Origin: a phage
Strand: one strand, 5' to 3'
Length of the DNA stretch: 40,233 nucleotides
Sequence record: PZ445540.1
This document shows, one piece after another, positions 35,911-40,233 of the stretch. Every line of letters starts with the position of its first letter. Position 1 is the first letter of the stretch. The position numbers were made by a program, and so were the translations under genes. The notes beneath the pieces were generated by a model. The model saw nothing but the letters and a program-made list of their open reading frames with translations, had not been told where the DNA came from and made no database searches.

Positions 35911-36462
35911 ATGGGTCAGAAAATCATTACGTTGTCCGGCGCTGCGACGGATGTTCTTTATGCGCTGTTTTTCCGTGGCGCGCTTCAGTCTGGTGACCTG
36001 CCAGCTAAATCTGGTGCTGCTGAGCTTCGGGAGCTGGGATTCGCTGAAACACGCCATACCGCGACGGAGTATCAAAAGGAAAATTATTTCACCTTCCTGA
36101 CTGCTGAAGGGCAGGAGTTTGCTATTAAGCACATGGTAAATACGCGCTTTGGTGTACCTACCGGTGGTTATATCGGCTCACCTGTAGATAAGCCGGGGGG
36201 AGATATCCGTTGCTGTTGCCCAATAGAAGGCATTAGCTGGGGCTGGTTTGTCGATAAATCCGGACAGGCATACATCCACAAGGCGCTGATCGGCGATGGC
36301 GTATTGTCTACGAGTTATAACGTGAAGATTAATGCTGACGAAAAAGGAAAAGCGCCAGAGACAGCCTTACAGCAGGCCATTAAAAAGGTTGTGGACGAAA
36401 CTGTGCAACAAGCAATGCAGCCAGGCGGCAAGATCTGGAATTCCTTGAAGCGTAGATTCTGA
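35911..36462 (+). CDS. hypothetical protein
   Basis: 183 aa; RBS AAGGA; 'CCCP' motif; directly upstream of the glycosyltransferase. Confidence 0.45.
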   Translation: MGQKIITLSGAATDVLYALFFRGALQSGDLPAKSGAAELRELGFAETRHTATEYQKENYFTFLTAEGQEFAIKHMVNTRFGVPTGGYIGSPVDKPGGDIRCCCPIEGISWGWFVDKSGQAYIHKALIGDGVLSTSYNVKINADEKGKAPETALQQAIKKVVDETVQQAMQPGGKIWNSLKRRF

Positions 36463-36473
36463 CGGGAGGTTTT

Positions 36474-37931
36474 ATGCAGGTCACTATTGATGGTGTCCCA
36501 TACGCTCCCGCCAGCGTCGTTTCATCACGGATCGGCATTGCCATTTCGACGCATCAGCGTGCAGACGTTTTAAAACGAGCACTCGAACAGCACATGAAGC
36601 ATCTTCCCGCCGGCGCGCTGGTGGTGGTTGTCGATGATGGTTCAAAACCTGCAGCGGTAGTTCCCCACGGCGTGCAGCTGCTTCGCCATGAAACATCACT
36701 CGGCATTGTTGCTTCGAAGAACACCAGTCTGTCAGCCTTGATGGATGCCGGGTGCGAGCATCTTTTTCTGTGGGATGATGATGCCTGGCCGATTGCTGAT
36801 AACTGGCACCTGCCTTACATCGAATCACCCGAGCCACACCTGGCTTACCAGTTTCTCGATCTTGCTGGCACGAACAAGCTGAATGACCTTTCGGTGCTTT
36901 ACCGTGACGATCAGCATGTGGCGTACACCGGGCAGCGCGGCGTGATGCTTTATTACCACCGCAGCGCCATCGAGAAGGTAGGCGGATTCGATCCGGTTTA
37001 TGGCCGGGGCATGTATGAGCACAGCGACCTCGCCTTGCGCATCCATAACGCAGGACTGACTACGTGGGCTTACGCTGATGTCCTCGGTTCAGAAAAGCTG
37101 ATTCATTCCCTTGATGAGCATGAAGCCGTAGAGCGTTCGGTACCGAAACCAGATCGACAGGCGCTGGTAGAACGTAACGTTAAAATCCATAACGAACGGC
37201 GCGATGCCGGGTTTACCGGTTCCGTGGATTATCGGCGGCAGCGCGACGTGGTTATCACTACTCTGCTGACCAGCCAGTCAGATCCGCAGCGCGGTACGAA
37301 AATGTCCGCCGCACCTGACATGCTGACCCGTTGGGCTTCCTCGCTTCGGAATTGTGGTCGTATCGCGCTGGTGGATGAACTGCAGACGGCACCGGCAGAC
37401 GTTGAGCTGTATCGCGTTCCTGACGTGAAGATGAATGTCTACTTCCGGCGATGGCTGCATATCTGGCAGCACCTGCGTGATCATCCTGAATACCGGTTCG
37501 TCTGGTGTACCGATGGTACAGATGTCGAAATGCTCCGCGCACCGTGGGAAGAAATGCAGCCCGGTACTGTTTACGTCGGTTCTGAACCGAAGACCTACGC
37601 CGACACCTGGGCAAAGCAGAATCATCCTGAGCGTATCTATCAGGAGTTCATCGAAGCGCACCGCAACGATGTGATGCTAAACGCTGGTCTGCTGGGTGGT
37701 ACCCGCGCTGATGTAATGGCGTTTGCCCACGGCATCATCCGTCTTTACTACCGGATCGAGAGTTATCGTTTCTGGAAGAAAGAACAGGCTGGCGCCGCGG
37801 TGGGGGATATGATCGCTTTTGGCATTGTTGCTAAGTCTTTTGGCGATCGCATTGTCACCGGACCGCGCATCCATACAGTGTTTAAGTCAGAAGGAATCGG
37901 TAAAGAGTACGCATGGTTCAAACATAAGTAA
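36474..37931 (+). CDS. glycosyltransferase (family 2-like GT-A N-terminal domain + unknown C-terminal domain)
   Basis: 485 aa; 'GIAISTHQR...LVVVVDDGS' nucleotide-sugar-binding motif and 'FLWDDDAWP' DxD-like motif; no TM segment. Confidence 0.7.
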   Translation: MQVTIDGVPYAPASVVSSRIGIAISTHQRADVLKRALEQHMKHLPAGALVVVVDDGSKPAAVVPHGVQLLRHETSLGIVASKNTSLSALMDAGCEHLFLWDDDAWPIADNWHLPYIESPEPHLAYQFLDLAGTNKLNDLSVLYRDDQHVAYTGQRGVMLYYHRSAIEKVGGFDPVYGRGMYEHSDLALRIHNAGLTTWAYADVLGSEKLIHSLDEHEAVERSVPKPDRQALVERNVKIHNERRDAGFTGSVDYRRQRDVVITTLLTSQSDPQRGTKMSAAPDMLTRWASSLRNCGRIALVDELQTAPADVELYRVPDVKMNVYFRRWLHIWQHLRDHPEYRFVWCTDGTDVEMLRAPWEEMQPGTVYVGSEPKTYADTWAKQNHPERIYQEFIEAHRNDVMLNAGLLGGTRADVMAFAHGIIRLYYRIESYRFWKKEQAGAAVGDMIAFGIVAKSFGDRIVTGPRIHTVFKSEGIGKEYAWFKHK

Positions 37932-37944
37932 GAGAGGAAATTAT

Positions 37945-38095
37945 GGTAAGCAAAACACTAGTTAAGAGTAAAAGCGGCAACAAATCTAGTTGCCGCAGCC
38001 AAGAATTTTTCAGAGTGCCTACAGGTAAGATATTTATATCTTCTGCAAGTATTGAAAAATTAGTTTGTTTTTACGGAGTCAAGAATCTTCAGTAA
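37945..38095 (+). CDS. small ORF (50 aa) in AT-rich island
   Basis: Hand-translated MVSKTLVKSKSGNKSSCRSQEFFRVPTGKIFISSASIEKLVCFYGVKNLQ; RBS AGAGGAAA; 3' end overlaps the convergent minus-strand ORF. Confidence 0.2.
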
Positions 38096-38299
38096 AGCTT
38101 CTTTTGCATGAGTGTGAGCCTCAACCATCGACGGGTCACTAACAGAAGTTGATTTAATAAAGTTTGCAATAACTTCTTTGTTGTTTGAGCCAACAACAAA
38201 TGCGCTGAATGTCTGAGCAAGCAGTTCTGTCAGCGCGTAATTTTTGCGTAAAACGTCATCAATCCGTTCAAACTGTTCTGAAACGCTATATCCACTCAT
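38060..38299 (-). CDS. hypothetical protein (AT-rich island, opposite strand)
   Basis: 79 aa ORF on the minus strand inside an otherwise + strand late operon; low GC. Confidence 0.35.
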   Translation of the reverse strand: MSGYSVSEQFERIDDVLRKNYALTELLAQTFSAFVVGSNNKEVIANFIKSTSVSDPSMVEAHTHAKEALLKILDSVKTN

Positions 38300-38429
38300 T
38301 TCCTTTCCTTCGTCAGAGGTAATCAGCCATCACTCTGCACATGTGTGCGCCAGTGTCCCACCACTGACGGGCTGAGTGCTTACCTTAACCAGGGTTAAAG
38401 CGAAGTAACACCCTGATATTCAGACAGTA

Positions 38430-38452
38430 GCCGCCATCGTGCGGCTTTTTTA
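38430..38452 (+). terminator. intrinsic terminator immediately upstream of the second glycosyltransferase-like gene
   Basis: gccgccatcgtgcggc followed by TTTTTTATT; the RBS GGAG and a GTG start follow within 20 nt. Confidence 0.55.
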
Positions 38453-38466
38453 TTGGAGATTTGCTG

Positions 38467-39054
38467 GTGGCTGAAAACATAAAGTTTGTGGTGGTCGGTC
38501 ATCACGCCAGACGGCAGCAGGCTGAGGCGTTGGCCTCGGCTATAGGCGCACATTTGCTGATTGATGACGGTAACCACGGCGCGAACTGGAATCACCGACG
38601 CGCGCTTGAGTGGGCAGCAGAGCAAACATGCAGGGTGGTAGTGTTGGAAGACGACGCACTGCCGGTACATGGATTCACCGAAAAGGTAACTGACTGGTTG
38701 GCTCGCTTCCCTGACGACATGCTGAGCTTTTATCTCGGTACCGGCCGACCGCCGCAGTATCAGAAAGAGATTGCCGGAATGCTGGTGGATTCGGATCGCG
38801 TCTGTGGTGACCACATCGTAATAAGCAAGCTGATTCACGGCGTATGTTATAGCCCTCCTCGGGGAAGTTTGGCGCGCATGCTCAGCACATGGAACAAAAC
38901 GCTTGCAGCTGATTACGCCGTCGGTGAGGCCTTCGGTGGCCGGGTGATTTATCCGTGTTACTCGCTGGTGGATCACGCTGACCTCCAGACGGTTGAACGT
39001 CACCCTGACAACGAGCCGAGGACAGAACGCCGCCGCGCATGGAGGCTGGCATGA
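38467..39054 (+). CDS. glycosyltransferase family 25-like protein
   Basis: Start tentatively GTG 38467 (RBS GGAG 8 nt upstream), ~195 aa; 'HGANWNHRRALEW...CRVVVLEDDALP...FYLG' resembles the GT25 (LPS/LOS glycosyltransferase) pattern. Confidence 0.5.
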   Translation: MAENIKFVVVGHHARRQQAEALASAIGAHLLIDDGNHGANWNHRRALEWAAEQTCRVVVLEDDALPVHGFTEKVTDWLARFPDDMLSFYLGTGRPPQYQKEIAGMLVDSDRVCGDHIVISKLIHGVCYSPPRGSLARMLSTWNKTLAADYAVGEAFGGRVIYPCYSLVDHADLQTVERHPDNEPRTERRRAWRLA

Positions 39055-39392
39055 ACAAAGAGCCCCGCGTATATGGCAGCCGATGGGATAAGGCCCGCCT
39101 GCGTTTCCTGCAGCAGCACCCACTATGTGTGATGTGCGAGCAGCAGGGGCGCATAACCCCAGCAACGGTGGTTGACCATATAGAGCCCCACAAACTCAAA
39201 GATGCGCTTAAGTCAGGCAATGCTGAGGCAATCGCCAAAGCTCAGTACCAGTTCTGGAATAAAGCCAACTGGCAGGCACTGTGCAAAGCGCACCATGACT
39301 CAACTAAGCAGAGAATGGAGAAGAGCGGCACAGTCATAGGCTGTGATGCCAACGGCTACCCGCTCGATCCTGCGTCTCACTGGAGTAAGTAA
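39051..39392 (+). CDS. HNH endonuclease (packaging-associated)
   Basis: ATG 39051 overlaps the upstream stop; CxxC...'VDHIEPHK'...'CKAHHD' HNH motifs; adjacent to TerS as in cos-type phages. Confidence 0.85.
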   Translation: MNKEPRVYGSRWDKARLRFLQQHPLCVMCEQQGRITPATVVDHIEPHKLKDALKSGNAEAIAKAQYQFWNKANWQALCKAHHDSTKQRMEKSGTVIGCDANGYPLDPASHWSK

Positions 39393-39592
39393 TGACACAA
39401 GACCAGCAAACCATTCTGATTTTTAAGGGCCTGATTGCCTCACTGCCTGAAGAAACCCAGGAGAAAGTTAAACATGCTGAGAATGCTATTCGCCAGGTGA
39501 TGACCGATTACCCTGATGGTGAGGCGGTGATTGCACTGGGTCTGGTTGGTGCCGAGCTGCAATGCGATGGCCACGAACATGTGAACAAGTGA
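39392..39592 (+). CDS. hypothetical protein
   Basis: 66 aa ORF whose ATG overlaps the HNH stop (TAATG). Confidence 0.4.
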   Translation: MTQDQQTILIFKGLIASLPEETQEKVKHAENAIRQVMTDYPDGEAVIALGLVGAELQCDGHEHVNK

Positions 39593-39741
39593 AATCATTT
39601 CATTTGCAACCATATCAAATGAGAATGAATAGCATCATGGGTAGGGGGGGATCAAATCTTCAAAACCTTTGCCCCAAATGACCGCCGCCAAAGTTTGATT
39701 TTAACGCTAACCCGATTTTTTTAGTTTTAAGGTGTTGACAT
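39593..39741. other. candidate cos / packaging-initiation region
   Basis: Non-coding stretch between the HNH gene and TerS with a G-run (gggtaggggggg) and a GC-rich gaccgccgcc segment. Confidence 0.3.
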
Positions 39742-40227
39742 ATGGCAGATAAACGAACCCGTTCCGACAGTTCGGCGGCAGCGGTTCAGGCCATGAAAAA
39801 TGCAGCAGTGGACACCATCGATCCTCCGTCCCATGCAGGTTTGGAGAAAAAAGCCGAACCATTCTGGCATGACAATATCAGATCGAAAGCTCTGGACAGC
39901 TGGACGCCAGCCGACCTTTTGGCCGCCGTAGAACTGGCAAATAATCAGCTCTATATCACCGTTTTACGCAAGGATTTGCGCAAAGAAGAGCGAATTCGCG
40001 GAGAGGGCCGTGACGAAGGGCTTATCAAAGACCTACGCAAGCAGATTGTTGAGCTGCAGCGAACTATTCTGGCTCAGCGCCGTGACCTCCAGATCCATTC
40101 CCACGCAACCAACGGCGAAAGCCGCGACCAGAAGAAACGCAATCAGAATGATCGTGATGCACGAAATACCAAAAACGAGCATCAGGACCAGGACGACAAC
40201 CTGATCGCCTTTCCCAAGCACGGATAA
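39742..40227 (+). CDS. terminase small subunit (P27-family-like)
   Basis: 161 aa; N-terminus and charged C-terminal tail resemble P27-type TerS; stop lies 6 nt before the TerL ATG at position 1 if the window is circularly joined. Confidence 0.7.
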   Translation: MADKRTRSDSSAAAVQAMKNAAVDTIDPPSHAGLEKKAEPFWHDNIRSKALDSWTPADLLAAVELANNQLYITVLRKDLRKEERIRGEGRDEGLIKDLRKQIVELQRTILAQRRDLQIHSHATNGESRDQKKRNQNDRDARNTKNEHQDQDDNLIAFPKHG

Positions 40228-40233
40228 AAGACT

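Follow-up and report, generated by a model that had tools for sequence, protein, structure and literature searches.

A low-GC island in a 40,233-nucleotide (nt) stretch of phage DNA (sequence record PZ445540.1; hereafter the window) lies between two glycosyltransferase genes and carries, antisense to the late operon, a small gene for a protein of 79 amino acids (aa). We consider it probable that this island is a reverse moron, that is, an autonomous unit expressed in lysogens from a portable promoter-leader block, which opposes the Q-dependent late operon and is silenced by convergent transcription. Comparison with related sequences indicates that the promoter-leader block, bounded on its outer side by a plus-strand terminator, forms with it a portable module of ~130-150 nt that stands before at least 18 unrelated small cargo genes. 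The elements of the cassette that bear most directly on this interpretation are listed here by their positions in the window.

37932..38452, minus strand: the whole cassette (candidate reverse moron), inserted after the upstream glycosyltransferase gene's stop codon and before the ribosome-binding site (RBS) of the downstream glucosyltransferase gene
38429..38451, plus strand: intrinsic terminator bordering the cassette on its promoter side, with a 6-bp stem (38429-38446) of which 5 pairs are G-C, followed by TTTTT
38405..38410, minus strand: weak -35-like hexamer TGTTAC, 17-bp spacer, within the inverted repeat CAGGGT...ACCCTG (columns 50-55 of alignment A2)
38382..38387, minus strand: predicted sigma-70 -10 hexamer TAAGGT, of the form TAnnnT
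38370..38375, minus strand: invariant UCAGCC at the predicted 5' end
38307..38377, minus strand: conserved structured 5' leader of ~75 nt (covariance model R1, 87.6 bits, E=4e-21)
38348..38369, minus strand: leader hairpin S4 (CGUCAGUG-GUGGGA-CACUGGCG), in which 99.6% of cells pair and covariation affects 5 of the 8 base pairs
38314..38337, minus strand: leader hairpin S5 (CAGAG...CUCUG), whose loop contains the invariant AUGGCUGAUUA, with 92% of cells paired and 3 of 5 pairs covarying
38300..38311, minus strand: Shine-Dalgarno (SD) region of the cargo gene (GAAGGAAAGGAA), with AAGGA-type SDs at the corresponding position of the aligned copies
38060..38299, minus strand: the cargo gene, 79 aa, ATG start, with substitutions that are all synonymous and a protein family found in Enterobacterales

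The non-coding block that separates the 79-aa gene from the plus-strand terminator (~38300-38452, ~150 nt) is conserved across phages. Searches with blastn place it at 76-92% DNA identity in HK633, CharmingMan, mEp213, mEp043, HK022, HK97, ES18, Oslo, SPN3UB and others, where it precedes HK97 gp23, HK022 srb, ES18 gp25, HK633 gp65 and mEp213 gp72. The annotation beside the block reads ‘reverse moron product’ for HK97 gp23, ‘srb’ in HK022 and ‘possible moron’ for ES18 gp25. A pattern representing the 29-nt core of the block matches at least 120 viral contig stretches (IMG/VR) among the matches listed, as well as Citrobacter and Enterobacter genomes, and further copies in Yersinia and Pseudescherichia were reached via homologues of the 79-aa protein. 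Among 5426 complete E. coli genomes searched with blastn, 212 also contain the block, which occurs at up to 6 places per genome and is never annotated. Several phages have two or more copies at different late-operon junctions and with different cargo, including SPN3UB and the phage contig in IMG/VR that carries both L063 and L066.

The cassette occupies exactly the space between a late gene's stop codon and the RBS of the next gene, at no fewer than six different junctions. In the tail region it separates gene I from J or M from L, or follows the tape-measure gene; elsewhere it lies between the holin and endolysin genes or between the lysis and packaging modules. In all annotated contexts the block is antisense to the late operon. 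Long flanking open reading frames (ORFs) are on the opposite strand in 52 of 63 cases upstream and 40 of 63 downstream, and on the same strand in only 2 and 1. An ATG-initiated minus-strand ORF begins 43-52 nt from the conserved core in 122 of the 129 copies. Among 55 loci that share the window's upstream gene, divergence starts right after that gene's stop codon and homology resumes in the leader, and one close relative (L072) has the same cargo gene as the window with a different leader variant.

The genes behind the block are diverse. BLAST sorts their 56 distinct protein products into 18 families, most of which show no relationship to one another by HHalign. The possibility that all cargo belongs to a single fast-evolving superfamily finds no support, as HHalign links only a few families (at 78%, 67% and 51% probability) and links the window's family to none. 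Non-helical cargo also occurs behind the same leader, including an aspartic-protease-like protein of 154 aa (PF13650), DUF1883 proteins and a 169-aa protein (phrog_3983), at loci L021/L121, L037/L044/L089/L133 and L052/L073. The remaining cargo proteins match PHROGs annotated as having unknown function.

Selection on the two small ORFs of the island was assessed base by base in four close relatives with 94.5-99.8% identity. Because all 16 substitutions in the 79-aa ORF are synonymous, with those in L115 all falling in the same codon phase, this ORF is best explained as a real gene whose protein is under strong purifying selection. The protein family comprises 24 clusters, all from Enterobacterales and all annotated as hypothetical, and is conserved down to 54% identity. 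An AlphaFold2 model of the protein has three helices (predicted local distance difference test score, pLDDT, 84), and a Foldseek comparison of this model with PDB and BFVD returned nothing better than E=0.4. The protein has no match in Pfam, PHROG or PADLOC 2.0, and five other cargo proteins likewise have no match in PADLOC 2.0. By likeness to other morons, the 79-aa protein is probably an accessory factor, one that acts in phage conflict or one that modifies the host.

Expression of this gene would begin at a promoter that is predicted from alignment A2, which holds 78 distinct block copies in the minus-strand orientation. In all 78 copies the hexamer TAnnnT keeps its T, A and final T, its middle bases differ between copies, and the base two positions upstream (-14) is always G. 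From this pattern we predict a sigma-70 -10 element that includes part of an extended -10 motif. Distant copies keep the hexamer as TATTGT or TATGTT, 6-7 nt from UCAGCC. Since the invariant UCAGCC begins 6-7 bases downstream of the -10 element, transcription is predicted to start at ~38375 (range 38373-38377) on the minus strand. The inverted repeat around the -35 hexamer exhibits little covariation and no strand preference, and is treated here as probable promoter DNA. Further upstream of the -35 hexamer is a conserved CTG-N9-CAG (TACTGTCTGAATATCAGG; 38412-38427, minus strand, A2 columns 33-48), the spacing of which is kept in a second sequence variant (TACTGATCATTTGTCAGG). This motif resembles a LexA box, a reading that was dismissed because N9 replaces N10, which leaves the element one base short. 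Sites of the sigma-54, CII (TTGC-N6-TTGC) and P2 Ogr types, read by eye, were also dismissed.

Immediately downstream of this promoter, the leader carries two hairpins whose conservation was evaluated in alignments A2 and A4. Both are retained in distant copies with quite different sequences. For example, the S5 stem is AUGGGG/CCCCAU in phage Perceval, whereas the S4 stem is wholly different yet complementary in Pseudescherichia (CGUCCAUG/CAUGGACG), and Yersinia has another stem again. Within S5, pair 56-78 occurs as A-U 26 times, as G-U 22 times and as G-C 7 times. None of 500 shuffles reaches the observed values, and slid controls pair only 25-48% of cells, versus 93-95% for the real structure. 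Covariance model R1, which was built on S4 and S5, finds one significant copy in the window, and Rfam 15 gives no match at E<=1 in 36000-40233.

The strand on which these hairpins fold can be read from their G-U wobble pairs. Cells that pair only through G-U on one strand are distributed 74:0 (minus:plus) in S4 and 38:2 in S5, compared with 8:15 in the plus-strand terminator, which serves as an internal control. Because of this strand bias, the folded RNA is most simply explained as the minus-strand 5' untranslated region (UTR) of the cargo gene. Considered as a possible riboswitch or other sensing leader, in which a fold that responds to a ligand or signal would gate the SD or a terminator, the leader has a conserved structure, and the SD is not sequestered in its predicted folds. 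Sequestration of the real SD by an anti-SD sequence was rejected because only 3 bp would be possible. Pairing of the invariant UCAGCC with GGCUGA (38323-38328), in the loop of S5, is conceivable and would either tie the 5' end into a pseudoknot or give an alternative fold that competes with S5; when the single sequence is folded to minimum free energy, UCAGCC is paired.

An invariant segment of the leader (38313-38330, minus strand), AUGGCUGAUUACCUCUGA, also reads as a five-codon mini-ORF (MADYL*). Within it, AUUACCUCU resembles the anti-SD region of 16S rRNA and pairs with the SD-like AGAGG in S5. The stop codon of this mini-ORF is not conserved and the SD-like sequence abuts its AUG, and we regard the reading frame as a probable coincidence.

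The outer edge of the module is formed by the plus-strand terminator. All 6 of its stem pairs covary among the 78 homologous copies, and a strict test finds both hairpin and T-run in 57 of 75 distinct copies, with a T-run in ~85% of copies. Terminator-like elements number 4 in 37400-39000 versus 1.8 +/- 1.3 expected, which is weak alone, and so support for the terminators of this region comes from conservation. On that ground we conclude that the plus-strand element is a real terminator that travels with the cassette and ends just ahead of the RBS of the next late gene. A plus-strand promoter-like site within the upstream gene (37852-37879) was rejected, as it varies at codon third positions and has no conservation beyond codon constraints. 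Because no conserved plus-strand promoter was found, the terminator is read as a likely insulator for the silent late operon in lysogens.

The opposite end of the cassette, where the cargo gene converges with a second small ORF, contains three additional features.

37943..38095, plus strand: 50-aa ORF with an ATG start and the SD GAGAGGAAA, evolving neutrally and without a Pfam or PHROG match
38004..38061, minus strand: long 3' UTR hairpin that begins at the stop codon of the 79-aa gene, from minus-strand folding of 37960-38062
37974..37996, minus strand: predicted intrinsic terminator hairpin of the cargo gene (GCGGCAAC-loop-GUUGCCGC), with an 8-bp stem including 6 G-C pairs

The minus-strand fold of 37960-38062 has a free energy of -30.3 kcal/mol (z=-5.7), and none of 200 shuffled sequences is as stable. 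The terminator hairpin lies 64 nt beyond the stop codon of the 79-aa ORF, inside the 50-aa ORF, and is followed by UUUUACUCUU down to ~37964. Its stem is unchanged in close relatives and its flanks vary. This second terminator was overlooked in the original prediction for the island, a reading made from the letters of the window.

In the non-overlapping part of the 50-aa ORF, 17 substitutions in L072 and L115 cause ~14 amino-acid changes. Because this proportion of nonsynonymous substitutions equals the neutral expectation, the 50-aa ORF is probably not a conserved protein. It may be translated, or it may be what is left of the forward partner gene that other cassettes possess; its predicted product is basic, not hydrophobic. 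In this context an SD and an ATG follow the upstream stop codon by 10-20 nt in all cassette variants. In many cassettes a forward ORF begins with a conserved N-terminal sequence, MTLEQRVEALEK..., while its C-terminal part differs greatly between copies and extends into the reverse cargo gene at the 3' end of the latter (loci L015, L016, L023, L031, L036, L059, L075, L086, L096, L104, L111, L113, L116, L121, L127 and others). This ORF, which may be the conserved left flank of the cassette or a partner gene, is absent from the window.

These features can be combined into a working model for the cassette. Host sigma-70 RNA polymerase would start at ~38375 on the minus strand, as judged from the sequence of the -10 element TAAGGT, and would produce a transcript consisting of the ~75-nt leader with its two hairpins and then the 79-aa gene, ending at the hairpin at 37996..37974. 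In a lysogen, the late operon would be silent and the cassette expressed, while the plus-strand terminator would keep stray rightward transcription from entering the downstream late genes. The folded 5'-proximal leader would stabilize the mRNA, in the manner of known 5'-terminal stabilizers, and would leave the A-rich SD open to support translation. After induction, Q-modified polymerase would pass the plus-strand terminator, and the resulting head-on transcription and fully complementary late RNA would then silence the cassette, as in the phi80 tai/ati noncontiguous operon.

Several observations weigh against this interpretation. The -35 hexamer is poor, and a generic consensus scan calls no minus-strand promoter here, such that the cassette's own promoter is a computational assignment with a start predicted from sequence. 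As a single sequence the leader folds no better than its shuffles (z=-1.1). The potential UCAGCC/GGCUGA pairing never covaries, both sides being invariant, and 8 single mismatches are uncompensated. About 10 copies (~13%) keep the plus-strand hairpin without the T-run. At the other end, the notion of a universal terminator after the cargo gene is not supported, because across the family such an element is present in 19 of 65 cases on the sense strand versus 16 on the antisense strand and 6-13 in shuffles. No empty site was seen for the window's junction, as all 55 related loci carry some cassette. Finally, both the function of the cargo and the role of the leader, whether in stability or regulation, are inferred.

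Among the other explanations that we considered, one holds that the locus is a noncontiguous operon for defense and counter-defense (or toxin and antidote). The 79-aa protein made in the lysogen would harm incoming phages or the cell, and a late forward gene (the 50-aa ORF or the downstream gene) would neutralize it during the phage's own lytic growth. A convergent forward ORF does accompany the cargo gene in most cassettes, forward families recur (MTLEQRVEALEK..., MISYEVEFP... and DUF1327), the upstream stop codon is always followed by an SD and an ATG, and phi80 tai/ati provides a precedent at the same lysis-to-packaging position. However, the forward ORF of the window is neutral, PADLOC yields no match, and Tai is ~3 times larger than the 79-aa protein. 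Moreover, forward families do not track cargo, since MISYE... occurs with two cargo families and F1 cargo occurs with either MISYE... or MTLE.... We judge such a pairing to be rather unlikely. The idea of type I toxin-antitoxin or mutual antisense control between the two ORFs draws on their 36-nt convergent overlap, and the original prediction had similarly suggested a toxin-antitoxin-like module. This proposal fares worse, because neither product is a short hydrophobic peptide, and the 50-aa ORF is basic, free of selection and without a conserved or separate plus-strand promoter. The overlap also coincides with the cargo gene's folded 3' UTR hairpin, and the 50-aa ORF overlies the terminator as well. 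We find this explanation extremely improbable.

A small RNA (sRNA) ending at the plus-strand terminator had also been proposed. This would be a plus-strand sRNA or a 3'-end-derived Hfq-type RNA of ~38378-38451, made from or processed out of rightward transcripts. Its order of elements, with a hairpin and a linker rich in A/U ahead of the terminator and its U-tail, does resemble an sRNA 3' module, the terminator covaries, and the CAGGGT/ACCCTG repeat has 16 cells that pair by G-U only on the plus strand versus 9 on the minus strand. A lax Rfam search also gives, as its best match, a weak full-length hit to isrK (RF01394; 15.6 bits, E ~0.1-0.2). We rejected membership in this family because the match depends on the terminator, its score falls well short of the 50-bit threshold, and true isrK in Gifsy-1 is located downstream of Q among c4-type RNAs, in a c4/ant-type locus. 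The resemblance is that isrK too has a hairpin and then a terminator (AGCCGC...GCGGCUUUUUU) on the plus strand. The repeat is almost without covariation, some copies have no U-tract, there is no conserved plus-strand promoter, and the substitutions in the would-be promoter region fit minus-strand RNA pairing. The G-U pairing of both leader hairpins and the fixed distance of the conserved block from a minus-strand start codon likewise count against a plus-strand sRNA, which we deem quite unlikely. Very unlikely, in turn, is that the block is a mere recombination ‘linker’, a shared patch of homology for cassette swapping that has no expression function. The same cargo with different leader variants (L072 versus the window), the same block with many cargo genes and contexts, and a Chi sequence 12 nt to the right in an orientation that directs RecBCD-stimulated exchange into the block are all consistent with such a role. 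Yet it leaves unexplained the compensatory changes, the strand-specific wobble, the TAnnnT with its variable middle and the fixed start-codon distance, and the Chi sequence is part of the neighboring gene and absent in other contexts. Recombination and expression roles of the block could be compatible.

A more ambitious extension of the reverse-moron interpretation, which we put forward only tentatively and think somewhat doubtful, is that the leader and its invariant promoter represent a new cis-regulatory RNA class, a common control point that would co-regulate a large pool of rapidly exchanged small accessory genes expressed in lysogens. Such a ‘cassette expression platform’ might sense a host or phage signal, or bind a shared protein or sRNA. 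It would operate on several such genes per prophage, placed antisense at many lambdoid late-operon junctions.

The nearest relatives of the window's cassette are the HK97 gp22/gp23 and HK022 gp22/gp23 (srb) gene pairs, which are reportedly the moron and reverse-moron pair described by Juhala and colleagues in 2000, as annotated in NC_002167 and NC_002166. Their upstream block is homologous to that of the window (76-83% identity over ~140 nt), and the layout is the same: a forward ORF, a converging reverse ORF, the conserved block, the plus-strand terminator and the next late gene. In contrast, the HK97 and HK022 pairs lie between tail genes I and J, whereas the window cassette lies between two glycosyltransferase genes near the packaging module; the cargo proteins are unrelated, and the forward partner is a neutral 50-aa ORF in the window and an MTLE...-type gene in HK97 and HK022. 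The ES18 gp24/gp25 ‘possible morons’ share the same block at 83%, and terminators are annotated on both strands in ES18. Their cassette lies between tail genes M and L, with a 95-aa cargo protein (phrog_10490) and a DUF1327 protein as the forward gene. A convergent pair of this type recurs in mEp213 (gp71/gp72) as well.

Of the features that define a moron in the sense of Juhala and Hendrix, the cassette has its own promoter (computationally predicted), its own terminator (37996..37974 plus a U-tract) and a deviant base composition. As for extra DNA between genes that are adjacent in relatives, placement from stop codon to RBS was found at six or more junctions, with all 55 local loci occupied. 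Like HK97 gp23, it combines homology in the upstream block (76-92%) with a reverse orientation in the late operon. Sequence relationships thus support assigning the cassette to the moron class, as a relative of the HK97/HK022 gp23-type reverse morons through its regulatory block, and this kind of element was already known, at first from phages HK97 and HK022. Classical forward morons such as HK97 gp15 and lambda bor and lom are, like the window cassette, extra, GC-deviant and independently expressed genes of the late operon (PMC3594210). They differ in being co-oriented with the late genes and in having no such promoter-leader block.

The mechanism that we propose finds its closest parallel in phi80, where, in taiEcA/atiEcA, a gene that is reversed and expressed in lysogens breaks into the Q late operon ahead of the packaging genes (PMC11364771). 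The level of Tai protein drops on Q expression, and the antisense or convergent logic has been demonstrated experimentally (PMC11364771). The window cassette resembles this noncontiguous operon in that its gene is oriented opposite to the surrounding operon. Unlike the window cassette, phi80 has its antidote on the promoter side, and Tai is ~26 kDa (with a 3xFLAG tag, by western blot). Phi80 is not among the blastn matches to the leader block in the phage collection, which indicates no shared leader, and we know of no similarity between the 79-aa protein and Tai, no Tai sequence having been compared. As an analogy only, integron gene cassettes likewise join a single conserved module, for expression and exchange, to many small cargo genes that are unrelated to one another. 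The window cassette has no integrase, attC site or array, and its exchange presumably occurs by homologous recombination at the conserved flanks.

The literature searched has no description of the block as a portable promoter-leader module, although the similarity between HK97 and HK022 was perhaps noted in the study of Juhala and colleagues. Relative to that literature and to Rfam, what appears to be new is the widespread module, its covariation-backed RNA structure and its use with numerous unrelated cargo genes at numerous junctions. In temperate phages, genes that change the host, including those for exclusion, defense and virulence, are kept in morons, and the comparison indicates that one promoter-leader block marks an entire class of these elements. 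A simple sequence handle, either covariance model R1 or the core GCGCCAGTGNCCCACCACNGNCGGGCTGA, is thus available for finding small, presumably lysogen-expressed genes that annotation pipelines often miss or call on the wrong strand. At least 18 small-protein families are thereby offered for screens of phage conflict. The leader itself is a compact RNA structure, absent from Rfam, whose candidate roles include mRNA stabilization, translation control and a switch coupled to late transcription.

Within the window, the plus-strand gene order around the cassette is lysis genes, a 183-aa ORF, the 485-aa glycosyltransferase gene, the island, the glucosyltransferase gene, an HNH endonuclease gene and the terminase gene. 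The two genes that adjoin the island are as follows.

36474-37931, plus strand: upstream glycosyltransferase gene, 485 aa, matching phrog_1579 (E=6e-250)
38467-39054, plus strand: downstream glucosyltransferase gene, matching phrog_854 (E=8.5e-72), with a GTG start at 38467 and a GGAG RBS at 38455-38458

These matches bear out the original description of the flanks as two glycosyltransferase genes. The inserted, low-GC character of the island was also borne out (GC content of 0.345-0.35 in 37900-38199 versus 0.52-0.58 in the flanks), as were the 36-nt overlap of the two ORFs (38060-38095) and the existence of a plus-strand terminator ahead of the next gene. The spacing of ~15 nt between that terminator and the RBS needs correction, because the stem ends 8 nt and the T-tract 3 nt before GGAG, ~20 nt ahead of the GTG start. 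As an interpretation, the original prediction is only partly supported. Its ‘antisense-regulated module’ was correct in spirit, in that an inserted low-GC unit has a gene antisense to the operon and control by an antisense or convergent late transcript is plausible, whereas the toxin-antitoxin and sRNA readings weighed above did not hold.

Over 37850-38520, the region that was compared, the window is 100% identical to the reverse complement of Escherichia phage SaltyDalty (PP925825), whose record is 36,900 nt long. In GenBank, the SaltyDalty record places a ‘hypothetical protein’ on the minus strand at window positions 38395-38976, opposite the plus-strand gene at 38467-39054. The minus-strand ORF has no match, in contrast to the phrog_854 match of the plus-strand ORF, and the annotated gene was probably called on the wrong strand. 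Across the whole window, the Chi sequence GCTGGTGG is present 19 times versus 1.4 expected, with 18 of the 19 on the plus strand. The one located at 38463-38470, past the plus-strand terminator and at the start of the glucosyltransferase gene, is oriented such that RecBCD-stimulated exchange would land in the conserved leader. In its Chi richness, the window resembles Chi-rich lambdoid phages (PMC12315714).

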